A DNA stretch of 64,000 bases from Parachlamydiales bacterium (GCA_963765145.1 CAVXVG010000029.1:1-64000); one strand, 5' to 3'. Positions 2,465-58,077 are shown, counted from the first letter of the stretch. Program-made: numbers and translations. Notes: generated from the letters alone by a model not told the origin.

Positions 2465-2920
2465 TTCGCAACACGTTTGGAGTGCGCAAGTCCTCTTGCG
2501 CTTTCACTGTTCACTGACAAGTCAAAGCTAAACGGGAGTTTAGTACGGCCTTGTTGCATAATTAAGCATAATTTGGACAAATATTGTAGCTTAGGCTTTA
2601 GAGGCACTTGCAAAAATGGGCCAATCTGCTTTTTCGTCTTTTCGAAAAAATTGCGCTTGTTTTCGATTCGGCTAACCCACAAGGGGTTAGGCCTCATCTC
2701 CAAACAAGCATTTTTTCAAAAATCCTGAAAAATCAGATTTTGGCCGATTTTTGCAAGTACCTCTTTAGCCTGAGTTTGTTTTGCGGGGTTTTAACCCCGC
2801 ACATCTTCTGCAGGACTAAAGTCCTGCAAAACGAGCTCAGGCTAAAGCCTAAGCTACATTTTTTAATTAGAAATTGAATTGTGCAACAAGGCCGTTTAGT
2901 ACTCCAAACGCACACGCGAA
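2465..2920. repeat. Four-level nested element: REPIN A [MITE B 2547-2893 [REPIN C 2585-2858 [MITE D 2601-2763]]]
   Basis: A arms cgtttggagtgc...gtactccaaacg. B ends ggccttgttgca/tgcaacaaggcc with 9-bp duplication gtttagtac. C ends tgtagcttaggc/gcctaagctaca. D ends gaggcacttgcaaaa/ttttgcaagtacctc with TTTA duplication. Confidence 0.9.
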
Positions 2921-5123: not shown

Positions 5124-5966
5124 ATGATCACTTGGGACGCACCAAAAGCTCTCTTTACTTTTCCAGCTACAGGCCATGAAGTTCGCATTTATGGTGTCCT
5201 TTTTGCACTTGGAGCAGGCCTTGCTTGGTACTTGATCAGGCGAAATTTCATTTCCTTATTCCAGAGTAAAGGAGAACCCTTACCGCAGGCGAAAGAGCGA
5301 GCGACTAAGCTTTTAGACAAGCTGACCTGGATATCGGTCCTTTCTTTAGTTCTAGGCGCCCGGCTGTTCCATCTGGTTTTCTACGATTTTGATTATTTCG
5401 TCCAGGACCCCCTCTCCATATTCCGTTTTTGGGAACCGGGACTTGCAAGCCATGGGGGAACCCTCGGCTTACTTATAGGTGTTACCCTTTTCTGGAAGAA
5501 AACTAAAGATCAGTTTTTAGGGGCCGGTTTCCTCGAATTTCTCGATCGTTTTTCACCTCCTACTGCTATCACGGGTGCTTTTATCCGTTTTGGCAATTTC
5601 TTTAACCAAGAAATTTTAGGGACGCCAACCGATATGCCTTGGGGTGTTACTTTTCTTCACCCTGTTGATGGTGGCCCAATCGTTCCACGCCACCCCGTAC
5701 AGCTTTATGAAGGGTTTTTCTATCTAGCCTGCTTTTTTGTCTTAAGCAAGATCGCACCAAAAAAGCCCGGATTTGTTTCAGGCCTCTTTTTTGTCTTGGT
5801 TTTTGGTGGACGGATGGTATTGGAAGCGTTCAAAGACTCTCAAAGCGGCGTTTTTGATGGGTCGGCTTTTTCAACAGGCCAGCTCCTCAGCATCCCCCTC
5901 ATCCTCTTCGGCCTATTCCTAATGTTTAGAAGAAGCTTTTTTTATAACCCACGAAATATAGCTTAG
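5124..5966 (+). CDS. lgt: Prolipoprotein diacylglyceryl transferase
   Basis: GARL, GLASHGG, RFGNFFNQE and RHPVQLYE motifs. Confidence 0.95.
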   Translation: MITWDAPKALFTFPATGHEVRIYGVLFALGAGLAWYLIRRNFISLFQSKGEPLPQAKERATKLLDKLTWISVLSLVLGARLFHLVFYDFDYFVQDPLSIFRFWEPGLASHGGTLGLLIGVTLFWKKTKDQFLGAGFLEFLDRFSPPTAITGAFIRFGNFFNQEILGTPTDMPWGVTFLHPVDGGPIVPRHPVQLYEGFFYLACFFVLSKIAPKKPGFVSGLFFVLVFGGRMVLEAFKDSQSGVFDGSAFSTGQLLSIPLILFGLFLMFRRSFFYNPRNIA

Positions 5967-6275
5967 ACTTTAAAGGCACTTGCAAAATTCGAATAGTTGG
6001 TTTTTCTCTAGAAAATAGGTCCGAAGGACCGAAATATGAAAGCCCAGCGCCGAAGGCCTGGGTTACAAATGTGAAATATAATTGGAGTCCTGAAAGGACG
6101 GCATAATTGCCTTCTAGACTATTTATAGAACAGGATATGTCGTCCCTTCAGGACTCCAATTTCTATTTGCAACTCTTACCCAGGCCTTCGGCGCTGGGCT
6201 TTCATATTTCGGCCCTTGCGGGCCTATTTTAAGCTTAACCTGATTTTTGCAAGTGGCTCTAAAGCCTAAGCTACA
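5957..6275. repeat. Nested element: REPIN C ends [MITE D 5973-6259 [hairpin cargo 6012-6230]]
   Basis: tatagcttagacttta...taaagcctaagctaca flanks D ends aggcacttgcaaaa/tttttgcaagtggctc. Internal long inverted repeat with agcccagcgccgaaggcctggg and gtcctgaaaggac units. Confidence 0.85.
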
Positions 6276-6284
6276 TTTCGTAGG

Positions 6285-17759: not shown

Positions 17760-17864
17760 TGTAGCTTAGGCTTTAGCCTGAGTTCGTTTTTGCGGGTTTT
17801 AACCCGCAACCGTGAGCAGGACTAAAGTCCTGCAAAACGAACTCAGGCTAAAGCCTAAGCTACA
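17760..17864. repeat. Free REPIN C (GTAG-type inverted REP pair)
   Basis: tgtagcttaggctttagcctgagttcgtttt...aaaacgaactcaggctaaagcctaagctaca with inner hairpins gcgggttttaacccgc and gcaggactaaagtcctgc. Confidence 0.9.
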
Positions 17865-23281: not shown

Positions 23282-25111
23282 TCATGAAGCGGGAAGGTTA
23301 AGCCTTTCTAAAATAGCGTGATTATTATGGAGGGGGGAATCTTCATGGCGCAAGGTGTCTGCAAAGGATTTCCGTTCCTCTTGAGTTTCTAATGAGTCAG
23401 CATAGGTGTTAAGCCAAGTAACTGCCCTATCAAAGACTGAAGGCACTTGGAACATGTCGGCAATGGCTAGCATTTCAGCAGCTGCGTCGACATCTTCAAA
23501 TGTCAAGGAGGAATCGGCAATGTATTTGACAAGGTCTTCAATGGCGCCAGGAGCGATATTTTGCATCGGAGACTGCCCAGCTTGCCATCTGTTTGCCAAA
23601 TAACGAGAGAAATACTCTGAGTGATCCTTAAGCAGTTTTTGATCAAAGGCAGAGAGTGTAGCACTTCCCCTTTTGCCATCTAATTCGCATTCAATGGTTC
23701 GAATCGGTGCTTTCAGCTCTTCCCATGTAATATCGCCTGTTCTATTGAGCCATCCCAACGCTAGCATGGGAGGTAACGTTACCTCTTTCTCCTCATGCGA
23801 GATTGTGAGCATCTCGTCAACCCCTCCCCTTCTTTCTGCCCATTGGTAAAATGCAATAGCCATCAAAAACCTTGGATCTTTGGCTTGAGCTTCAGTTAGC
23901 ACGTTGGCAGCAACTGCAGAGAACTCTATTGAAGCCCGTGTGGAGAACTCAAATCCACTCAGTACCGCACTCTTTTCAAGTTCATTCAACGTAAATATTG
24001 GGCCATTAGGGAAAACCTTAAGGTAAAGTGCTTCTAATTTTTCCCACTCTTGATCCGAAAAGAAAGGGCGTAAAGGCACACGTAGAGAAAATAAAGCTTC
24101 AGAAAGAGATTTACTGACTCCTGGACGGTCAGAATCGAAAAGGTCAGCATTGGCAGGGCAGGACGCGAGATAAAAGGCTAAAATTTTAACAATAAAATCT
24201 GCATGCTGGGAATTTTGATGTACAAATTCTTCTAACCCTTCAAGCGCCATGGCGTTACACCTTTTAAGTGGGTTTGTCAATGACTTAAGACGCAGTAATA
24301 TATAAGCCTTGTCATACAATCCCGACATTGGCACGTCTCTCTCAAGATCACAGTAAATTTTAAGCGCTTCCGGATCAGGAAAACTATCTGCCACTCCTAA
24401 ACAATCGAGCAAGCCATCGCACACCTCTCTTCTCATCCAAATATTATTTCCAATAACACTCGAATAAGCTTTTAAAAAGACTTTAAGTAGAGGGGGGTAA
24501 TTATTTAAATAGGCGATAGCGTTCTGTGGAAAAGTTCTAAAGCCATTTTCGTCAATAAATTCATGCTTAAATTGCGCGCAGAAAGCCTCCATCAATGATA
24601 AAGAAACATAATTATCACACGGTTCTCGGAAAAACCCTTGCATTATAGCATGAATAGAGTCCCGCGACCATCTAGGGGCGACCCTTCCAATAGAATCTAA
24701 GTCTGTTACTGTCAACGATTTGCCTTCAAATAGTTGGTACAAAACATAAGTGCTCCTCTGATTGTTTAGGGTGGAGAAACAATATCGCAATAACTCTAGA
24801 TCTTGCGGATTTGCGTGTAGGACTGTCTCAAGCCTTGTAAAGGCTCTATTGCCACTTTCGATATCGCTATAGGCTTCGGCGTATTTTGGATCAAAATAAG
24901 TATGATAGAGGGTTTTTACATTCGATGCGGCATAGGAGGCTACATTAGTCATCCATTTTGGGAGATAGCCAGAGCTTGTAGGCTCTGCTGACAACGCCTC
25001 CCTAGCAATGTTCTGCACCTCTTGCTGCGAGGCTGGTGGTGTGGGTGTAGTTTCCCCTTCATTGGAAGGTTGGGGAGGCCCAGGTCCTTGAGTAGGTGGT
25101 GTTATGCTCAT
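23282..25111 (-). CDS. C-terminal BTB/POZ-domain effector-like protein (paralog 2)
   Basis: Pro/Ser/Thr-rich N-terminus; LLKDHSEYFSRYLANRW...IEDLVKYI...MLAIADMFQVPSVFDRAVTWL. Confidence 0.75.
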   Translation of the reverse strand: MSITPPTQGPGPPQPSNEGETTPTPPASQQEVQNIAREALSAEPTSSGYLPKWMTNVASYAASNVKTLYHTYFDPKYAEAYSDIESGNRAFTRLETVLHANPQDLELLRYCFSTLNNQRSTYVLYQLFEGKSLTVTDLDSIGRVAPRWSRDSIHAIMQGFFREPCDNYVSLSLMEAFCAQFKHEFIDENGFRTFPQNAIAYLNNYPPLLKVFLKAYSSVIGNNIWMRREVCDGLLDCLGVADSFPDPEALKIYCDLERDVPMSGLYDKAYILLRLKSLTNPLKRCNAMALEGLEEFVHQNSQHADFIVKILAFYLASCPANADLFDSDRPGVSKSLSEALFSLRVPLRPFFSDQEWEKLEALYLKVFPNGPIFTLNELEKSAVLSGFEFSTRASIEFSAVAANVLTEAQAKDPRFLMAIAFYQWAERRGGVDEMLTISHEEKEVTLPPMLALGWLNRTGDITWEELKAPIRTIECELDGKRGSATLSAFDQKLLKDHSEYFSRYLANRWQAGQSPMQNIAPGAIEDLVKYIADSSLTFEDVDAAAEMLAIADMFQVPSVFDRAVTWLNTYADSLETQEERKSFADTLRHEDSPLHNNHAILERLNLPAS

Positions 25112-25186: not shown

Positions 25187-25284
25187 CTCGCGAAGCGTTT
25201 GGAGTGCTAAACTCCTGTTTAGCTTTGACTTATCAATGAAAGTGAAAGCTAAACAGGAGTTTAGCACTCCAAACGCTTCGCGAG
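25187..25284. repeat. Intact (empty) REPIN A
   Basis: Perfect 40-bp arms (ctcgcgaagcgtttggagtgctaaactcctgtttagcttt) around an 18-nt spacer; each arm contains hairpin gctaaac-tcct-gtttagc. Confidence 0.95.
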
Positions 25285-25408: not shown

Positions 25409-27586
25409 TCATGAACCGGGAAGGTTAAGCCTTTCTAAAATAGCGTGATTATTATAGAGGGGGGAATCTTCATGGCGCAAGGAGTCTGCAAAGGATTTCC
25501 GTTCCTCTTGAGTTTCTAATGAGTCAGCATAGGTGTTAAGCCAAGTAACTGCCCTATCAACGACTGAAGGCACTTGGAACATGTCGGCAATGGCTAGCAT
25601 TTCAGCAGCCGCGTCGACATCTTCAAATGTCATGAAGGGATAGGCAAGGTATTTGATAAGGTCTTCGATAGCTCCAGGAGCAATGTTCTGTATCGGAGAC
25701 TGCCCAGCTTGCCATCTGTTTGCCAAATAACGAGAGAAATACTCTGAGTGATCCTTAAGCAGTTTTTGATCAAAGACAGAGAGCGCAGCACTTTCCATTT
25801 TGCCATCCAATTCGCATTCAATGGTTCGAAGCGGCGCTTTCAACTCAGCCCAAGTAATAACGTCAGCTTTATTAAGCCATCCCAAAGCTAGCATGGGGGG
25901 TAATTTCACCTCTGCCCCCTCATACGAGATTGTTAGCATCTCGTCAACCTTTCCCTTTCTTTCAGCCCATTGGTAAAATGCAATAGCCATCAAAAACCTT
26001 GGATCTTTGGCTTGAGCTTCAGTTAGCACGTTGGCAGCAACTGCAGAGAACTCTATTGAAGTCCGTGTGGACAACTCAAATCCAATCAGTACTGCACTCT
26101 TTTCAAGTTCATTCAACTCAAATTCATTCAACGTAAATATTGGACCATTAGGGAAAACCTTAGGATAAAGTGCTTCTAATTTTTCCCACTCTTGATCTGA
26201 AAAGAAAGGACGTAAAGGCACACCCAAAGAAAGCATCTGTTTTAAAAGTGGACCGCACGTATTTAAACGAAGCGTATCGAGAAAGCCAGCAAGAATAGGA
26301 TCGGGCTCAATACGATTAGAGCCCAACTCGATAAGAAAGGCTAAAATTTTAACGACAGAACCTATATGTTGAGGATTCTGATCAGCAAATTTCATCAATC
26401 TTTGCTGTGGCTTTGGCAACCAAAGCATGGGATTTAAATCATTTGGGCTAAACGACGAAATTGGCACTTCTTCTTTAAAGTGATCACAATAAATTTTAAG
26501 GACTTGCAGACCAATTTCTTCCTCATGAGGATTTGAATATATAGCTGTTAAGTTCTCTAATAGGCCATTTAATATTTTATGCGACTGCCATGAATCTTTT
26601 CCTACTTCACTAGAATTGACATCTAAAAAAGCTTTAAGTAGGGAGGGGTTTTTATTTAAATTGATCGCAGCATTTTGCCTAATAAGTTCATATCGATACA
26701 GCCTACAGAAAGTCTCCATCAAGGACGTAGAAGAACTACTCCTACTAAAAAATCCATGTATTGCAGTATCTTTTAAAATGCCCCTATAATCCCAACTTGC
26801 TTTCATTACATCTATGTCTTTTGCTGTTAATGATTTGCTTGCAAACAGACGTTCCCATACTCTGCTGACGCTTGCCTTATCACGATCAAGATTTAGTTTA
26901 AAAATAGCTGCGCTATAGTTCCATAGATCCAGATTAAATGGATTTTCGTGGAGTACTCTTTCAAGCCTGGCAAACATTCTATTTTCATCGCCACTTTTCA
27001 TTTCTTTATGCGCTGAAATGTATTCCAGAAATCGTGCTCTAAAAGCCTCTCTTAGCCCTGGTTGGATCTCTCGTCTTGCGTAAAACGATTCAAATACAGA
27101 TAGAGGGAGAAGTTTCTGAAGTTGAGGATCAGCCTTTATAATTGCATCGAAATCTGCAACAGTCAACTGTGCCTTTCCAAAAAGTATCACAAATGGAGGT
27201 GCAGTTTCTTCATTCATGATGCGGCCTGCAGGAAATAGATTCTCGAAGCAATAACTTAATAGCATTGGATCATATGGGTTTGCATGGAGTACTAACTCTA
27301 GCCTTCTCGCAATAGTTTCTGCATTGCCACTTTCGATATCGCTATAGGCTTCGGCGTATTTTGGATCAAAATAAGTATGATAGAGGGTTTTTACATTCGA
27401 TGCGGCATAGGAGGCTACATTAGTCATCCATTTTGGGAGATAGCCAGAGCTTGTAGGCTCTGCTGACAACGCCTCCCTAGCAATGTTCTGCACCTCTTGC
27501 TGCGAGGCTGGTGGTGTGGCTGTAGTTTCCCCTTCATTGGAAGGTTGGGGAGGCCCAGGTCCTTGAGTAGGTGGTGTTATGCTCAT
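25409..27586 (-). CDS. C-terminal BTB/POZ-domain effector-like protein (paralog 1)
   Basis: First ~88 aa and the BTB region near-identical to paralog 2; carries an extra internal repeat unit. Confidence 0.75.
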   Translation of the reverse strand: MSITPPTQGPGPPQPSNEGETTATPPASQQEVQNIAREALSAEPTSSGYLPKWMTNVASYAASNVKTLYHTYFDPKYAEAYSDIESGNAETIARRLELVLHANPYDPMLLSYCFENLFPAGRIMNEETAPPFVILFGKAQLTVADFDAIIKADPQLQKLLPLSVFESFYARREIQPGLREAFRARFLEYISAHKEMKSGDENRMFARLERVLHENPFNLDLWNYSAAIFKLNLDRDKASVSRVWERLFASKSLTAKDIDVMKASWDYRGILKDTAIHGFFSRSSSSTSLMETFCRLYRYELIRQNAAINLNKNPSLLKAFLDVNSSEVGKDSWQSHKILNGLLENLTAIYSNPHEEEIGLQVLKIYCDHFKEEVPISSFSPNDLNPMLWLPKPQQRLMKFADQNPQHIGSVVKILAFLIELGSNRIEPDPILAGFLDTLRLNTCGPLLKQMLSLGVPLRPFFSDQEWEKLEALYPKVFPNGPIFTLNEFELNELEKSAVLIGFELSTRTSIEFSAVAANVLTEAQAKDPRFLMAIAFYQWAERKGKVDEMLTISYEGAEVKLPPMLALGWLNKADVITWAELKAPLRTIECELDGKMESAALSVFDQKLLKDHSEYFSRYLANRWQAGQSPIQNIAPGAIEDLIKYLAYPFMTFEDVDAAAEMLAIADMFQVPSVVDRAVTWLNTYADSLETQEERKSFADSLRHEDSPLYNNHAILERLNLPGS

Positions 27587-27817
27587 AAGTCTATCCCACT
27601 TTTAATAAATTATAACAAAACAACCATCTTTTAATATTAAGATTCCATTAAAATTAATGAACTCGCGAAGCGTTTGGAGTTCTCTAATTGCGTTTCTAGG
27701 CAAGCATGATTTTTTCTCTTTCCCCTTCCTAAGCCGAGGGGGTTTGGGGGATACTTCCCCCAAGATAATTGACAACTTCCTCTATGGGCTTCCAAAGCTT
27801 GATCGTAAAAAATAAAA

Positions 27818-27978
27818 TTCTAACTCGGTCATAGTTCTCTCCGGGGTCCTTTTTATTGAAGATTTCGGCCTTATTAGCTGATCTTCAGCCCCAACATACT
27901 TTCCAAAAGAAACAAGGTAAGACAATGTGCTACACGACGTCTTATTAGCGTCAACTCCAAAGCGTCTTAACCTTATTT
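27818..27978 (-). ncRNA. Predicted bridge RNA/seekRNA of IS copy 1
   Basis: Reverse complement of 50194-50354, with the same four guide segments. Confidence 0.75.
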
Positions 27979-28049
27979 CGAACTCGTATTTGAATCTTTT
28001 TTCTTACTCTCTCTGCTCTTTCGCTCTTTGAGAACTTTTTTAACTTTTC

Positions 28050-29150
28050 TTAAGCAGCCATCTGCTTTGATTTTTTCTTCTCTTTCCGACTTGGCTTGGT
28101 TACTTTATCAATTTCTTTTTTCTCGACTTCACCAGCTTCAAATGGTTTACCTTCTGTCCACATTCGATGCATTATCACACCAAGCTTCCGACCAAGGGCA
28201 ACTATAGCTTTTTTATGCCCATGCTTCTTATTGATCTTTAGCCCAAAAACTTTGGCTCTACTCCATGTTTTGCATCGATACATCATGCTCATGGCGGCAT
28301 CAGATAGCAGCGCTCTGAGTTCATTTGATCCAATCTTTGTTATTTTCCCCTGATGCTCGGTTTCACCTGAACTATACTGCCTTGGAGTCATCCCAACATA
28401 TGCTCCAACTGACCTCGATCGTGTGAATCTTTTTGGGTCTCCAATTTCAACCTTATAGCTCACTGCAGTTACGATCCCTACACCAGGAACTGTCATTAGC
28501 AGCTGAACGACTTCGTCATTCTTTCCTATGTCTTCGATCTTCTTGTCTATTTCATCTACTAGTTTGTGAAGTTGAGAAAAGGTTACTAAAAGTGCACGAA
28601 TGCCCATTGCGACCTCTTCAGGTTGATCTTGTATCGACTCTGTTACCTTCTCTATGAAGTTCTTTTGACTACTACTAGACCCTAAAAAAAGCTTTCCACA
28701 ACATCTCAAAGTACCGCGGATACAGTTACTCGTCATGGTTCTTTGTATCACCAGATTGCGTCGGATGTTTAAGAGACTTTTGATGCTCATATTTGTATCG
28801 TTTTTTTGATAGACCTCTTGAAAGTAGCCAGTCCGAAGGGCGTTTGCGATTTCCCTCGCATCGTTTTTGTCTGTTTTATTGGCTTTGATTGCGATGGCGG
28901 CAGCCATTTTGCGAGAGTCGATACATATCGCTGGAAGGTCAAGCTCTTGAAGTTCTTGAACAAGCCATCGGCTTGTTCCACCAGCTTCAATTGCTATAGC
29001 TTCAATAGTGAGCTTGGTCGTCTTGATCGCAGTTGCGATAGCTAAAGGGTCAGTAGCGGCTGTCATCTCTCGGATGATCTTACCATCTTGAGCCATGATG
29101 CAGATGGCAGTAGTTTTCAAAGATACGTCTAAACCGATATAATGTTTCAT
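28050..29150 (-). CDS. IS110-family recombinase/transposase (intact)
   Basis: RuvC-like DEDD motifs IGLDVS, IEAG and KTDKNDA; C-terminal PGVG and YSSG (catalytic Ser). Confidence 0.95.
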   Translation of the reverse strand: MKHYIGLDVSLKTTAICIMAQDGKIIREMTAATDPLAIATAIKTTKLTIEAIAIEAGGTSRWLVQELQELDLPAICIDSRKMAAAIAIKANKTDKNDAREIANALRTGYFQEVYQKNDTNMSIKSLLNIRRNLVIQRTMTSNCIRGTLRCCGKLFLGSSSSQKNFIEKVTESIQDQPEEVAMGIRALLVTFSQLHKLVDEIDKKIEDIGKNDEVVQLLMTVPGVGIVTAVSYKVEIGDPKRFTRSRSVGAYVGMTPRQYSSGETEHQGKITKIGSNELRALLSDAAMSMMYRCKTWSRAKVFGLKINKKHGHKKAIVALGRKLGVIMHRMWTEGKPFEAGEVEKKEIDKVTKPSRKEKKKSKQMAA

Positions 29151-29353
29151 TGGGCTGTTCTCCTGTATTGCTTGCTTAGGCTACCAAGCCAAAGCCTGGA
29201 GAGTCTAGTACTACTCCGTGGGGTTTTTAAAACCCTCCTAGAACAGCCCATTTTCTTACCGGCTAAGCTCTGAAGCGCAATTACAGTATGTGCTAAACTC
29301 CTGTTTAGCTTTGACTTATCAATGAAAGTGAAAGCTAAACAGGAGTTTAGCAC

Positions 29354-29632
29354 GGCCTTGTTGCATAATTGCACGTGATTCCCCGTTTCTCCTGCAGCCC
29401 TTCAGGCTGCCATATAAAGTTTCATCCTAAACCCGGGGCGTTGCCCACGGGCTGTTGCAATTTTGGCCTTTCAGGCCAAGGGAAAAGCCTGTATTGCTAG
29501 GATTTTCCGGCTGAAAGCCGGATAGTTGCAACAGCCCGCGGGCAACGCCCCGGGTTAAGTTGGAGAATAAAATTGGCAGCCTGTAAGGCTGCAGGAGTAG
29601 AGAAACGTTGCGAACAATTATGCAACAACGCC
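29354..29632. mobile_element. MITE B (IS903-like ends) with hairpin cargo 29389-29597, in the other arm of the same REPIN A
   Basis: ggccttgttgcataatt...aattatgcaacaacgcc flanked by 9-bp direct repeat gtttagcac. Confidence 0.85.
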
Positions 29633-29669
29633 GTTTAGCACTCCAAACGCTTCGCGAAATAATAAGTTT

Positions 29670-30507
29670 TTAGATGCGAACGACTCTGGGGGGAAAGGGA
29701 TTTTCCTCGGAATGGAAGAGGCCCATTTCTTTGCCTCTTTCGTAGAATCTTTGAAGGGCTTTTTGACCAGATTCGGTCAAGCCCTGCACTTTCTTCATTG
29801 ACGAAGCTAGAAATATGTTTTCCGATCACATCGGGATCTTTATTTTGGGCATGCTCAAGGATGTAGGGATAGACCTGCTCTAAATGAGTGCTAGCAAATT
29901 GCAAAGAATGGTGTATAGCTTCTACCACAGCAGGTTTTTCAACCAAAGACCTCTTAGCCACAACAACTCCAAGGGGCAAGGGAAGCCCTTCCCGCTCCTC
30001 CCATAGGGCACCGAGGTCAGCTACTGTGCAGAGGTTTTCTTTTTCTACGATAAAGCGTCCTTCATGGATCAAAACCCCTGCATCGACCTCCCCTTTTTGC
30101 ACCATGGAGATGATCTTATCAAAGCGGGTGAACACCGGTTGTATGTCAACGGGGCCAAAGAGTTGGAACAGAAAATGGGCTGTGGTGCCTGCTCCCGGAA
30201 AGGCTACTTTTTTACCGGACAATTCATTTAAAGAGACATTCTTGCCTTTTTTGGTGACAACAACAGGGCCGACTCCATACGCAATAGCACCTCCCACAGG
30301 CAAAATTTCATACTCTTCTAAACATTGTAGAGCCGTGATAGCAGACACTTTTTGGACATCGAATTGTCCCCTTCTTAGGGCGATATTGAGCTCTTCAATG
30401 TCTAATAGCTCGACATTCATCTTTAGGTCTGGTGCTACCAAGTGGTTAGCCCAGGCACCAAAAATATAGGTGTCGTTCGGACAGGGGGAAAATGCGAGTG
30501 TTTTCAC
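29670..30507 (-). CDS. mqnD: 1,4-dihydroxy-6-naphthoate synthase (futalosine pathway); probable 1-nt frameshift near 29783
   Basis: FSPCPNDTY, LIHEGRF and LPLPLG. A family-like C-terminus (TESGQKALQRFYERGKEMGL...) lies in an adjacent frame ending at 29670. Confidence 0.85.
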
Positions 30508-31891: not shown

Positions 31892-31993
31892 TTTCGCGCT
31901 AGCGTTTGGAGTGCTAAACTCCTGTTTAGCTTTCACTTTCACTGACAAGTCAAAGCTAAACAGGAGTTTAGCACTCCAAACGCTAACGCGAAA
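31892..31993. repeat. Intact (empty) REPIN A
   Basis: cgcgctagcgtttggagtgctaaactcctgtttagcttt-spacer-aaagctaaacaggagtttagcactccaaacgctaacgcg. Confidence 0.95.
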
Positions 31994-40427: not shown

Positions 40428-40918
40428 CGCGAAGCGTTTGGAGTGCTAAACGGCCTTGTTGCATAATTCAATTTCTAATTAAAAAATGTAGCTTAGGCTT
40501 TAGAGGCACTTGCAAAAATCAGAATAAACTCTGATAAAGCCCTTAACATCTCTTAAGAGTTCTTGGTTACAAGATAAAAATAACAGGATGAACAGGGTGA
40601 ACAGGATAAGCTTCGCCAACAAAATGATTTCTATTTTCAAAATGATAAAGCTAGGCGGAGCTATCCTGTCGCTCGATGAGCGATCCTGTTCATCCTGTTT
40701 AATTTATAGGAAGCTTTTCCTTAGGTTAATGCAATACATAAGGGTCTATTGTGATCTGGAGTCCGATTTTTGCAAGTGTCTCTTTAGCCTGAGCTACAAT
40801 ATTTGTCCAAATTATGCTTAATTATGCAACAAGGCCGTGCTCCTGAGCCCGTTTAGCCTTTCACTTTCACAGATCAGTCAAAGCTAAACGGGCTCAGGAG
40901 CACTCCAAACGCTTCGCG
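40428..40918. repeat. Nested element: REPIN A [MITE B 40452-40836 [collapsed C 40487-40798 [MITE D 40503-40782 [aacaggatg-repeat hairpin]]]]
   Basis: Same terminal motifs as 2465-2920; B/C junction sequences are the reverse complement of those at 2547-2893; TTTA duplication around D. Confidence 0.9.
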
Positions 40919-46151: not shown

Positions 46152-46727
46152 ATGTGGAAATGGTTCATTGAAGGAATCATCCTTCTCTTTCCGATCGTCC
46201 TTTCCTGTTTGATTTTCATCTACTTATTCCAGCTTTTCTCCCATCCGCTCGATGTTTGGCTAGAATCGTTTTTCCCTGCCTTGGCCGGCAAACACTATAC
46301 TGCAAGGCTGATCGCTCTTCTAATGACTCTTGCCTTTATCGTGATCGTTGGCTTTTTAGGAGCACGCTGGATTTTAGGAAGAGTGTTAAAGCAGATACAC
46401 GCACTGTTTTTAAAAATACCAATCATTCGAAAAGTTTTTCATGCTTCTCATGAAGTGGTCAACACGATGTTGAGAGAGGAAGATCGGGGGTTTCAACAGG
46501 TAACACTCTTTCCGTTCGGAGATACTGGCGGTTATGCGGTCTCCTTTTTACCCCGTAAAGACGGGCAATTTGAAGAACACACCGCCGTCTTACTGCCGGG
46601 CACACCAAATCCCCTGCAAGGCTTTATGCTCTATGTAGAGAATGACAAAATCGCCCTTTCCGAGCTACCCATTGGCGCTGCCATGAAGTGGAACATCTCC
46701 ATCGGCTCGTCAGACTTCTCCAAATAA
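46152..46727 (+). CDS. DUF502 membrane protein paralog
   Basis: KIPIIRKVF and PGTPNPLQGF. Confidence 0.75.
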   Translation: MWKWFIEGIILLFPIVLSCLIFIYLFQLFSHPLDVWLESFFPALAGKHYTARLIALLMTLAFIVIVGFLGARWILGRVLKQIHALFLKIPIIRKVFHASHEVVNTMLREEDRGFQQVTLFPFGDTGGYAVSFLPRKDGQFEEHTAVLLPGTPNPLQGFMLYVENDKIALSELPIGAAMKWNISIGSSDFSK

Positions 46728-46739
46728 TTCCTTTTCGTC

Positions 46740-46979
46740 CGCGAAGCGTTTGGAGTGCTAAACGGCGTTGTTGCACAATCAAATAGAATTCGCATACACA
46801 TTGTAGCTTAGGCTTTAGCCTGAGCTCGTTTTGCAGGACTTTAGTCCTGCTAGAAGCTTGCGGGTTAAAACCCGCAAAAACGAACTCAGGCTAAAGCCTA
46901 AGCTACATTTCTCATGATGGCGATTAATTATGCAACAACGCCGTGCTAAACAGGAGTTTAGCACTCCAAACGCTTCGCG
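46740..46979. repeat. Nested element: collapsed REPIN A [MITE B 46764-46942 [REPIN C 46802-46907]]
   Basis: 9-bp duplication gtgctaaac around ggcgttgttgca...tgcaacaacgcc; complete C inside. Confidence 0.9.
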
Positions 46980-47038
46980 TAGTATAGATTTTTTAGTGGT
47001 AAAGAGACATGATGCGGGCAGGGGCAGGGGTTTTGAAG

Positions 47039-47599
47039 ATGAAATACTTTCTTGATGGAATAGCGATTCTTATTCCATTTATCCTGTCAGTTCTCATTGT
47101 GGTGTGGCTGGTTGACTTCTTCACCTATCCTCTCCACCTATGGCTCTCTCATGTGGTTCATCATAGAATCATCATCAAGACGCTGGCTTTTGTATTTACC
47201 GTCATCTTTATCACGACTCTTGGCTTTTTAATCCAAAGGTGGGCGCTTCATCGCTACTTAGACCGATTACATTCTCTGTTCTTAAAAGTACCCATCTTTA
47301 AGACCATTTATAAAAGCTGTTATCAGGCCATTCACGTTCTTTTTAAGAAGAAAGGGCGCGCTTTTAGTGCCGTTGTCACCTTTGAGTATGGCAATACCAA
47401 CGGCCAGGTGGTTGGCCTGATTCCTAGAGAAGAGAACCTCTTTGAAAACCATGTCCCGATCATGCACACGGGGCCAAGCCCCCTTCATAACCTCATCCTT
47501 TTCGTCGACAAGGATAAGCTCCATGCTACTGATATCCCTATAGAAAACGCGATCCGCTGGTCTGTTTCAGCAGGTTCGGCCCCCTTAAACAATTCTTAA
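47039..47599 (+). CDS. Divergent DUF502 paralog
   Basis: Same topology, KVPIFKTIY and TGPSP. Confidence 0.65.
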   Translation: MKYFLDGIAILIPFILSVLIVVWLVDFFTYPLHLWLSHVVHHRIIIKTLAFVFTVIFITTLGFLIQRWALHRYLDRLHSLFLKVPIFKTIYKSCYQAIHVLFKKKGRAFSAVVTFEYGNTNGQVVGLIPREENLFENHVPIMHTGPSPLHNLILFVDKDKLHATDIPIENAIRWSVSAGSAPLNNS

Positions 47600-48770: not shown

Positions 48771-49020
48771 ATGATCAAATTGAAGTCACTACACTTTTAC
48801 AACGCGAAGCGTTTGGAGTGCTAAACTCCTGTTTAGCTTTGACTTATCAGTGAAAGTGAAAGCTAAACAGGAGTTTAGCACATACTGTAATTGCGCTTCA
48901 GAGCTTAGCCGGTAAGAAAATGGGCTGTTCTAGGAGGGTTTTAAAAACCCCACGGAGTAGTACTAGACTCTCCAGGCTTTGGCTTGGTAGCCTAAGCAAG
49001 CAATACAGGAGAACAGCCCA

Positions 49021-50122
49021 ATGAAACATTATATCGGTTTAGACGTATCTTTGAAAACTACTGCCATCTGCATCATGGCTCAAGATGGTAAGATCATCCG
49101 AGAGATGACAGCCGCTACTGACCCTTTAGCTATCGCAACTGCGATCAAGACGACCAAGCTCACTATTGAAGCTATAGCAATTGAAGCTGGTGGAACAAGC
49201 CGATGGCTTGTTCAAGAACTTCAAGAGCTTGACCTTCCAGCGATATGTATCGACTCTCGCAAAATGGCTGCCGCCATCGCAATCAAAGCCAATAAAACAG
49301 ACAAAAACGATGCGAGGGAAATCGCAAACGCCCTTCGGACTGGCTACTTTCAAGAGGTCTATCAAAAAAACGATACAAATATGAGCATCAAAAGTCTCTT
49401 AAACATCCGACGCAATCTGGTGATACAAAGAACCATGACGAGTAACTGTATCCGCGGTACTTTGAGATGTTGTGGAAAGCTTTTTTTAGGGTCTAGTAGT
49501 AGTCAAAAGAACTTCATAGAGAAGGTAACAGAGTCGATACAAGATCAACCTGAAGAGGTCGCAATGGGCATTCGTGCACTTTTAGTAACCTTTTCTCAAC
49601 TTCACAAACTAGTAGATGAAATAGACAAGAAGATCGAAGACATAGGAAAGAGATGACGAAGTCGTTCAGCTGCTAATGACAGTTCCTGGTGTAGGGATCG
49701 TAACTGCAGTGAGCTATAAGGTTGAAATTGGAGACCCAAAAAGATTCACACGATCGAGGTCAGTTGGAGCATATGTTGGGATGACTCCAAGGCAGTATAG
49801 TTCAGGTGAAACCGAGCATCAGGGGAAAATAACAAAGATTGGATCAAATGAACTCAGAGCGCTGCTATCTGATGCCGCCATGAGCATGATGTATCGATGC
49901 AAAACATGGAGTAGAGCCAAAGTTTTTGGGCTAAAGATCAATAAGAAGCATGGGCATAAAAAAGCTATAGTTGCCCTTGGTCGGAAGCTTGGTGTGATAA
50001 TGCATCGAATGTGGACAGAAGGTAAACCATTTGAAGCTGGTGAAGTCGAGAAAAAAGAAATTGATAAAGTAACCAAGCCAAGTCGGAAAGAGAAGAAAAA
50101 ATCAAAGCAGATGGCTGCTTAA
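49021..50122 (+). pseudogene. IS110 recombinase with +1 frameshift near 49652
   Basis: Matches 28050-29150 apart from ggaaagagatgac versus ggaaagaatgac (may be a read error). Confidence 0.8.
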
Positions 50123-50193
50123 GAAAAGTTAAAAAAGTTCTCAAAGAGCGAAAGAGCAGAGAGAGTAAGAAAAAAGATTCAAATACGAGTTCG

Positions 50194-50354
50194 AAATAAG
50201 GTTAAGACGCTTTGGAGTTGACGCTAATAAGACGTCGTGTAGCACATTGTCTTACCTTGTTTCTTTTGGAAAGTATGTTGGGGCTGAAGATCAGCTAATA
50301 AGGCCGAAATCTTCAATAAAAAGGACCCCGGAGAGAACTATGACCGAGTTAGAA
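50194..50354 (+). ncRNA. Predicted bridge RNA/seekRNA of IS copy 2 (target-binding loop then donor-binding loop)
   Basis: Target guides tttggagt (50211-18) and tagcac (50240-45); donor guides agtatgt (50272-78) and agagaac (50332-38); each pair sits in an internal loop closed by stems. Confidence 0.8.
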
Positions 50355-50548
50355 TTTTATTTTTTACGATCAAGCTTTGGAAGCCCATAGAGGAAGTTGT
50401 CAATTATCTTGGGGGAAGTATCCCCCAAACCCCCTCGGCTTAGGAAGGGGAAAGAGAAAAAATCATGCTTGCCTAGAAACGCAATTAGAGAACTCCAAAC
50501 GCTTCGCGAAGGCAGAATTCTCTGCACGCTGGTTAAATTATGTTTTAG

Positions 50549-57971: not shown

Positions 57972-58077
57972 TGTAGCTTAGGCTTTAGCCTGAGTTTGTT
58001 TTTGCGGGTTTTAACCCGCAAGCTTCCAGCAGGACTAAAGTCCTGTAAAACGACCTCAGGCTAAAGCCTAAGCTACA
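57972..58077. repeat. Free REPIN C
   Basis: tgtagcttaggctttagcctgag...ctcaggctaaagcctaagctaca between convergent genes. Confidence 0.9.

Follow-up and report, generated by a model that had tools for sequence, protein, structure and literature searches.

At positions 2465 to 2920 of a contig from a Parachlamydiales bacterium, short non-autonomous elements of four families lie inside one another (A contains B, B contains C, and C contains D), and the question raised by this locus is how such an order arises and which enzymes produce it. An earlier note on this DNA had proposed that several transposases acted on each other's remnants, and had set against this the derivation of all composites from one ancestral composite.

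Element families and nests in the window

The window (the whole stretch of DNA that was analysed, 64,000 nucleotides) represents the first 64 kb of a 296-kb contig (C29) in an assembly of 2.68 Mb, which comprises 37 contigs with about 44% G+C and has a completeness of 84.8%. Families were delimited by their termini (A, CGCGAAGCGTTTGGAGTGCT; B, GGCCTTGTTGCATAATT; C, TGTAGCTTAGGCTTTAG; D, AGGCACTTGCAAAAAT), and elements were catalogued by motif searches with mismatch limits and subsequent pairing of the ends. The set of D ends was defined with a stricter motif; the 11-mer with one mismatch gave 313 matches, most of which were due to chance. Motif pairing across the genome yielded 76 A, 56 B, 46 C, and 28 D elements and left numerous orphan ends (82 A, 53 B, 27 C, and 17 D). 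The modal length of A was 94-96 nt and that of C was 106 nt; B formed clusters at about 179 and about 279 nt, whereas those of D were at 161 nt and at 279-286 nt. Modules common to the composites were also recovered by repeat finding. What had been listed previously as hairpin cargos turned out to be the ends of two further IS200-type elements, henceforth called E and F. The nests and free copies in the window are as follows (strand is given where one is assigned):

2467-2918: A copy hosting the whole composite, termini CGCAACACGTTTGGAGTGC ... ACTCCAAACGC
2547-2893: B-type MITE, background type i, 9-bp duplication GTTTAGTAC at 2538-2546 and 2894-2902, termini GGCCTTGTTGCATAATT
2585-2858: C REPIN within B, termini TGTAGCTTAGGCTTTAG / CTAAAGCCTAAGCTACA
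2601-2763: D-type MITE, 163-nt short form, within C, TTTA duplicated at 2597-2600 and 2764-2767, termini GAGGCACTTGCAAAAAT
5957-6275: C termini (17 nt per side) enclosing D (5973-6259), which encloses a palindromic E core (5990-6240)
17760-17864: free C REPIN, long hairpin of -50 kcal/mol, z = -15.2
25189-25282: free A, hairpin of -51.5 kcal/mol, z = -18.6
27664-29656: single A with both arms occupied, one by an IS110-family element and one by a B MITE
27679-29289, minus strand: IS110-family element of 1611 nt; its transposase ORF (28050-29150, 366 aa) is intact
29354-29632: B MITE with a palindromic F core (29384-29600), duplication GTTTAGCAC at 29345-29353 and 29633-29641
31896-31989: free A
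40428-40918: A enclosing B (40452-40836), a 28-nt mini-C (40487-40798, guest included), and D (40503-40782, long form with a different body)
46740-46979: A, interior-deleted form, enclosing B (46764-46942, background type ii, duplication GTGCTAAAC) and C (46802-46907)
48803-50508: A copy hosting a second IS110-family element (48882-50493, plus strand), with a frameshift that divides its ORF (49021-49656 / 49676-50122)
57972-58077: free C REPIN

All nests reported earlier, as well as the free copies of A and C, were thus present, with slightly shifted coordinates. The nest of A, B, and cargo that had been placed at 29292-29657 is real, but constitutes just one arm of the A copy at 27664-29656, which is split by the IS110-family element.

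Containment of paired elements was counted genome-wide, as the earlier note had suggested, and the order proved strongly biased and far from chance: A enclosed B in 18 cases, C in 6, and D in 4; B enclosed C in 13 and D in 7; and C enclosed D in 18. Nests reach a depth of four to five layers. Reverse containments comprised two cases of A within B, one of which lies within another A remnant (A>B>A), and a single B within D, which was rejected as a false pairing of chance motifs within the full-length B IS. With this pair set aside, none of the paired elements of the genome showed D enclosing A, B, or C, or C enclosing A or B. An inward-facing B terminus was found within 75 nt of 7 of the 54 free A copies, compared to 85 of 20,000 random positions. 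The claim that the order never reverses accordingly applies to the window but not to the genome, where some B-type MITEs enclose A and where D uses A as a direct target as well.

That these nests are artefacts of a metagenome-assembled genome, in which repeats were collapsed or chimerically joined, appears scarcely credible. Such errors might be expected from an assembly of 37 contigs at 84.8% completeness in which full-length B copies sit at contig ends (C2:1-1115 and the end of C25); against this, the composites are embedded between unique genes of the 296-kb contig, their junctions carry exact duplications, and the same architectures occur in a single-contig genome of the same genus. Four public sequencing runs held at most 0.24 of the sampled words, and their short contigs break at repeats; no empty-site allele was seen in this set of contigs. 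Two candidate rearrangements in the run contigs were discarded, namely joints on apparently opposite strands (5928/5931 to 6278), which are a palindrome effect, and a lone skip from 2565 to 2834, which is a cross-match with another B/C copy.

Insertion sites of the outer layers

The outer host, A, is a REPIN-like palindrome of 94 nt that consists of two inverted units, each with a conserved tail (CGCGAAGCGTTTGGAGT) followed by a hairpin with a 7-bp stem and compensated variants. Free copies, of which there are 54 genome-wide, are located at unique loci. Single strands of A and of C each fold into one long hairpin over the whole element, and the site used by D is therefore better termed the centre of a short palindrome than a loop. 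A Y1 gene flanked by A was found for none of the six Y1_Tnp matches in this assembly (84.8% complete) and for neither of the two in a second genome of the same genus (G001). Searches against Rfam over positions 27500-29800 gave nothing above threshold; matches to microRNA precursors on the A hairpin were below it.

The stability of these hairpins, the compensated variants in the small hairpins of A, and the position of many copies just downstream of genes would also suit structured RNA or DNA signals selected by the host, such as terminators or protein-binding sites, with the layers as modular variants that are not mobile. This reading is highly improbable, given that target duplications are present, that termini are common to transposase-bearing copies, that transposase genes lie between element halves, that elements are absent from orthologous spacers, and that Rfam returned only generic hairpin matches below threshold. 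A secondary host function of the palindromes alongside mobility may nevertheless exist.

The termini of B (GGCSTTGTTGCAYAAT) are common to B elements of 97-470 nt and to 1115-bp copies encoding a protein of 316 aa. These full-length copies (C2:1-1115, intact; C29:69607-70720, frameshifted and 5.6 kb past the window; and a frameshifted copy on C25) are 99.4-99.8% identical to one another. Their transposase matched DDE_Tnp_1_5 and DDE_Tnp_1 in Pfam and the IS5 family in NCBIfam (296 bits vs. a cut-off of 140). B would belong to the IS903 group, to which its GGC... termini and its 9-bp duplication are suited; a duplication of this length is typical for that group.

Out of 136 evaluable B ends, 68 adjoined an exact copy of GTGCTAAAC or GTTTAGCAC, with another 22 at one mismatch and 11 at two; the resulting 101 of 136 compare to 0.25% of 200,000 random 9-mers at the same tolerance. 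Direct repeats of at least 8 of 9 bases flanked 27 of 55 evaluable paired B elements, which divide 14 vs. 13 between the two arms of A. The duplicated sequence matches the variant of the host A (GTTTAGCAC, GTTTCGCAC, GTTGCACAC, GTTTAGTAC, GTGCGAAAC), one B subfamily is found in several A variants and in either arm, and an intact A is regained when B is removed together with one 9-bp repeat. The duplication is centred in GGAGT-N5-ACTCC, a short palindrome present in each arm of A, and the IS5-family (IS903-like) transposase presumably recognises this motif as the frame of its 9-bp duplication. No clean duplication was found for the other 28 of the 55 paired B elements (6 with inverted flanks and 22 classified as other), and the flanks of B at 40452-40836 (GTGCTAAAC / GTGCTCCTG) agree at only 5 of 9 positions; recombination or conversion among copies is thus frequent and blurs event counts.

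C consists of two inverted, hairpin-forming REP units with a 5' GTAG tag (TGTAG... termini). C halves flank an open frame of about 180 aa on both sides (C5:119088-119692), the product of which matched the REP-associated tyrosine transposase model NF047646 (103.4 bits vs. a cut-off of 80); a degenerate second copy of this RAYT is located at C28:46752-47350. D, its guest, shares its ends with a 1457-bp IS at C27:207334-208790 that encodes 381 aa. This transposase matched DUF772 and DDE_Tnp_1 in Pfam, each above its cut-off, and stayed under every NCBIfam cut-off (IS1182, 119.8 bits vs. 270; IS5, 69.4 bits vs. 140).

With ends taken as GAG...CTC, a perfect 4-nt direct repeat flanks 19 of 28 paired D elements; the flanks of 7 D elements are in inverted orientation. 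In C, the repeat reads TTTA or TAAA and corresponds to the centre of GGC-TTTA-GCC; less often, it reads TCCT and corresponds to the centre of GCTAAAC-TCCT-GTTTAGC in A. The 73 matches to the D-end motif were distributed over C palindrome centres (43), the TCCT centre of A (7), and other places (23, several of them chance matches). Three D body types and the full-length D IS use the identical site in C, and one C copy (C5:75752-76309) holds two D guests. The second DDE transposase would accordingly be one that recognises the 4-nt centres of the palindromes GGC-TTTA-GCC (C) and GCTAAAC-TCCT-GTTTAGC (A), with inverted repeats on either side. The statement that B and D each use one fixed site needs to be read as one sequence occurring twice, mirror-wise, in every palindromic host, and D uses A in addition.

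The third guest is the IS110-family element, the transposase of which matched DEDD_Tnp_IS110 (E = 4e-17) and Transposase_20 (E = 4e-24) in Pfam as well as the NCBIfam model NF033542 for IS110 family RNA-guided transposases (239.5 bits vs. a cut-off of 140). All five copies, two of which lie within the window, occupy the identical position in A and are 99.9-100% identical. Their junctions (marked by slashes) read ...GTTTAGCAC/ATACTG...GAGAAC/TCCAAAC... in 5/5 copies, with AC at both junctions and no long duplication, and the element carries subterminal inverted repeats (GTAATTGCG / CGCAATTAG). Within its 3' non-coding part of 372 nt, TTTGGAGT and TAGCAC match the two target flanks at a distance of about 30 nt from each other; by our estimate, about 0.3 such 8-mers are expected by chance. 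No Rfam match to a bridge RNA was obtained over positions 27500-29800. The IS110 enzyme may be guided to GCAC/TCCAAAC.

The search for autonomous partners proposed by the earlier note was therefore successful for B, C, and D, and its guesses were right in that B is an IS903-like member of the IS5 family and C and the cargos belong to RAYT/IS200-type Y1 systems. Several transposase chemistries are indeed involved, namely two DDE enzymes, Y1/HUH enzymes, and a DEDD enzyme of the IS110 family. That no cognate enzyme for A to D is encoded in the window was correct insofar as the enzymes for B, C, and D, as well as for E and F, lie outside the window in the same genome and none was found for A; the window is not devoid of relevant enzymes, as it encodes the IS110-family transposase that acts on A (27679-29289 and 48882-50493).

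Taken together, we consider the nests to be true nested insertions, at a probability of roughly 80%, with B, D, and the IS110-family element as outer layers placed by transposase site choice, and with inner layers that go back to few founder events and were then copied whole. Most likely, each outer-layer transposase selects its own site in the host, i.e., B in A, D in C or A, and IS110 in A.

Derivation of all composites from one ancestral A>B>C>D, which was duplicated and then lost layers so that free A and C represent deletion products, is very unlikely. It is compatible with the existence of interior-deleted hosts, with the inverted flanks of 6 B and 7 D elements, and with the spread of some A copies along with duplicated genes (identical flanks at 25189, 27664, and C24:30385-32027). 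It does not account for the restoration of an intact A on removal of B and one repeat that tracks the host variant, for the presence of B in both arms (14 vs. 13) and of one B subfamily across several A variants, for 54 free A and 24 free C copies at unique loci, or for three D bodies and a full IS at the same C site.

Comparison with two genomes of the same genus bears on a further alternative, by which insertion is random and guests survive only within the repeats of a compact genome, the order being survivorship. G001 (2.6 Mb) shares the gene order of the window with 64-80% identity in aligned stretches, a distance at which stepwise nesting states are not visible. Its orthologous spacers are without the elements at 5957-6275, 31896-31989, and 48803-50508, and the spacer orthologous to 46740-46979 carries a different palindromic element. 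Elsewhere in G001, the same builds recur, namely A>B>F, C termini with D and E, and a variant of A>B>F in which the F halves, themselves between B termini inside A, enclose a 150-aa Y1 gene. In G002 (88% complete), no A terminus was found, and a related IS was located at non-A sites in 15 of 15 examined cases; site specificity is hence either a property of the IS lineage or needs A to be present, and is not a trait of the family.

Survivorship is unlikely, even if repeats are neutral ground and the related IS of G002 occupies diverse sites after an apparent recent burst (identical ends at many contig ends). It predicts scatter over intergenic DNA and over the full length of repeats, whereas 68 of 136 B ends adjoin one of two 9-mers without mismatch, all five IS110 copies interrupt A at the identical phosphodiester, and the duplication made by D covers the 4 central bases and no others. 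Moreover, G001 has just 10 exact matches to the A terminus in its 2.6 Mb, yet 5 of 5 examined B ends are in an A-type site. Selection that removes harmful insertions may add to the bias.

Among named genome records, the A/B junction pattern was detected at 16 loci, and A lay beside a B end at 2 of these (L044, L046), both from one Parachlamydiales MAG record; the other 14, IS903-like ends in unrelated surroundings, were set aside. Within the named genome records searched, no such nest was detected beyond this genus.

Inner layers and their probable copying

The two cores were each assigned to an IS200-type gene. E forms the core of D elements of 283-286 nt, and its halves flank the gene at C24:56681-57127; F forms the core of B elements of 279 nt, and its halves flank the gene at C21:218943-219392. 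Both products matched the IS200/IS605 family model NF033573 (E partner, 71.2 bits; F partner, 76.2 bits; cut-off 55). A fourth Y1 family is present at C29:104047-105009.

The 46 C copies were divided by surroundings into 22 that occur in just two or three B backgrounds (7 in type i and 15 in type ii/iii) and 24 at unique sites; no empty copies of the C-bearing B backgrounds were present in the genome catalogue. In two copies, C is reduced to the 28-nt mini-C. Units of B with C inside were found in different A copies, each with its own duplication. With regard to the cores, the 38 copies of F comprise 26 that are bounded by B termini at either end, 5 that have such a terminus at a single end, and 7 free ones; of the 17 E cores, 15 are enclosed by D termini. 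The median nearest-neighbour identity of capped cores was 100% (F, n = 24; E, n = 15), compared to 88% (F, n = 7) and 83% (E, n = 2) for free cores.

That C occupies a constant place in B, and the cargos in B and D, is thus likely the result of common descent of amplified composites rather than of repeated site-specific insertion. With C in two or three B backgrounds, none of them empty, and with near-identical capped E and F cores, derivation from one ancestral composite fits the inner layers; the alternative named by the earlier note therefore fails for the outer layers and holds approximately for the inner ones. Under nested insertion, the entry of C and F into B and of E into D was likely limited to a few events, after which the composites were copied as wholes. 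Given the termini and duplications, together with the identity among core copies, the recent spread of the Y1-type E and F cores appears to bear the marks of DDE transposition, and palindromic cores of IS200/RAYT type would now spread mainly as cargo between DDE termini.

Composites without the interior of their host probably derive from hosts in which both mirror sites were occupied and the two guests recombined. Composites that keep host termini only do exist, and the inverted flanks of 6 B and 7 D elements fit such recombination.

Significance and comparison with known systems

These relations can tentatively be summarised as a food web, in which A is the common landing pad for three unrelated transposases and Y1-type cores (C, E, F, and at times A) multiply mainly as DDE cargo; we regard this picture as possible, though somewhat doubtful. 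If it is true, the elements would, by targeting each other, spare the genes of a compact intracellular genome a large burden of mobile DNA. The nests provide a base-precise natural record of target choice by different transposases inside one another's remnants, and the enzymes of B, D, and the IS110-family element are candidates for studying sequence- or structure-directed integration. Capped cores indicate that elements thought to be Y1-dependent can be taken over by DDE transposition. For the annotation of environmental chlamydiae, the layers explain many spurious small ORFs and contig breaks.

The kind of phenomenon is already known from REP-targeting IS and from conglomerates of elements within elements, and the present case is an unusually orderly one. 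No description of these families or of such nests in chlamydiae was found in the literature searched. Nested MITEs of maize and rice, reportedly formed by insertion preference (Jiang and Wessler, 2001), differ in being eukaryotic, in depending on other transposase families, and in having no Y1-DDE interplay. IS4321 and IS5075 (IS1111 group of the IS110 family) are said to target the terminal inverted repeats of Tn21-family transposons (Partridge and Hall, 2003). The IS110-family element described here resembles them in its subterminal inverted repeats and in occupying one fixed position in another mobile element; its target, unlike theirs, is a REPIN-like palindrome.

REP-targeting IS are reported from the families IS3, IS110, IS4, IS256, and IS5, with IS110 being the most frequent, and examples with highly selective insertion include IS1397, ISKpn1, IS621, ISPpu9/10, ISPa11, and ISRm22 (Tobes & Pareja 2006, PMC1525189). 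In line with these, IS110-family (5/5) and IS5-family elements target the palindrome of A. The guests described here differ from those of that survey in being mostly MITE derivatives and in adding two further layers, and nesting past one level does not feature in the part considered (PMC1525189). Furthermore, the MITEs of the guests in turn carry the palindromic hosts as cores, and the bacterium is an environmental chlamydia-like one, unlike the cases surveyed there (PMC1525189).

In conglomerates of the archaeon Haloquadratum walsbyi, 192 element-in-element events were counted and found to be strongly directional, and 30 of 31 MITEs as well as most SMR-A were located within IS200/605-derived PATEs or IS605-type transposons (Dyall-Smith et al. 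2011, PMC3119063). The direction is the same in both genomes, i.e., elements with terminal inverted repeats enter palindromic elements of Y1 type. The present nests differ in their base-precise sites with 9-bp and 4-bp duplications, with neither depth nor single-site precision being a subject of the part of that study considered, and in the amplification of palindromic cores between DDE termini, to which most of the recent copies are due (PMC3119063).

As in described REPIN-RAYT systems, C has the typical build and a RAYT gene between its halves, and A likewise has a two-unit build (Bertels & Rainey 2011, PMC3116915; Nunvar et al. 2010, PMC2817692). REP dimers tagged with GTAG are noted to occur regularly inside longer palindromes (Di Nocera et al. 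2013, PMC3733652), a situation that resembles the presence of C in B and of E in D. Unlike in REPIN-RAYT systems, several Y1 systems coexist in this genome (C, E, F, and the fourth family), no RAYT was found for A, and most of the recent E and F copies are framed by DDE-type termini instead of being free. What this genome adds to the known systems is a set of undescribed families in an environmental chlamydia-like genome, the base-precise convergence of three transposases on one host, a depth of four to five layers, and DDE MITEs that carry Y1-type cores.

Transposase gene cargo and further families

The sister genome of the same genus (G001) holds an IS200-type transposase gene inside nested elements:

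G001 contig C1:106500-107950 (L020): IS200-type transposase gene, 150 aa, between halves of palindromic core F, within the termini of B (a MITE of IS5-family elements), within a copy of A (the 94-nt REPIN-like palindrome).

The nest is flanked by GCGCTAAAG and GTGCTAAAG. In this arrangement the Y1 transposase gene is carried as cargo by a DDE-type element. A different Y1 gene is found on the contig of the window, C29:

C29:104047-105009 (region C29:103900-105220): gene for a 321-aa Y1-domain protein.

On both sides of this gene lies a short GGGGTCAGGCCTGGCATTCGGACATTTG-type repeat, arrayed in tandem, and gene and arrays together look like a fourth Y1/repeat system. Other B elements of the genome (C21:33766-34107, C29:84641-84986 and C21:205202-205506) contain additional palindromes, in which a AAATAAACGCCCGAAGGGTGTTT hairpin encloses a GGATTGTAGCCCAGGGTAAGC... 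palindrome that itself encloses GCACCCACGAACGTGGGTGC hairpins, so the genome has more families than A-F. The part around AACAGGATGAACAGG ... CCTGTTCATCCTGTT in the body of the long form of D (a MITE inserted mainly in C; window 40520-40765) has 93 short matches genome-wide, which suggests one more small repeat family.

Duplication and independent colonisation

Two settings bear on how individual copies arrived:

Window: paralogous ORFs of 609 aa (23282-25111) and 725 aa (25409-27586), both on the - strand; A copies at 25189 and 27664.
G001 C1:578096-578354 (L039): spacer orthologous to window 46711-47042, with a different long palindrome.

The paralogous ORFs share a 300-nt stretch at 100% identity, and the A copies that come after them have identical left flanks; this A copy was therefore multiplied by segmental duplication rather than transposition. 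The four copies of A at C24:30385-32027 have the same appearance.

The orthologous spacer carries the long palindrome CAACACGAAGAACGCGAAGGGACGAAGACCACGAAGG ... plus its complement where the window carries A enclosing B enclosing C, and was colonised independently in the two genomes.

Insertion sites of C and the IS110-family element

Bases immediately outside free copies of C, a REPIN, are often mutually complementary (typically ...AAA | TTT...), and a direct repeat is absent:

Window 5951-5956 / 6276-6281: C flanks, ACGAAA / TTTCGT.

Either variable bases form the outer part of the palindrome, or the middle of an A/T palindrome is the target into which C inserts.

The IS110-family element sits at one fixed position of A:

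Window 27679-28049, - strand: its 3' non-coding part, 372 nt, beyond the transposase ORF.

Within this stretch, TTTGGAGT and TAGCAC, separated by about 30 nt, agree in sequence with the two flanks of the insertion site in A. They may serve a bridge RNA as guide segments, with about 0.3 such 8-mers expected by chance (our own estimate).
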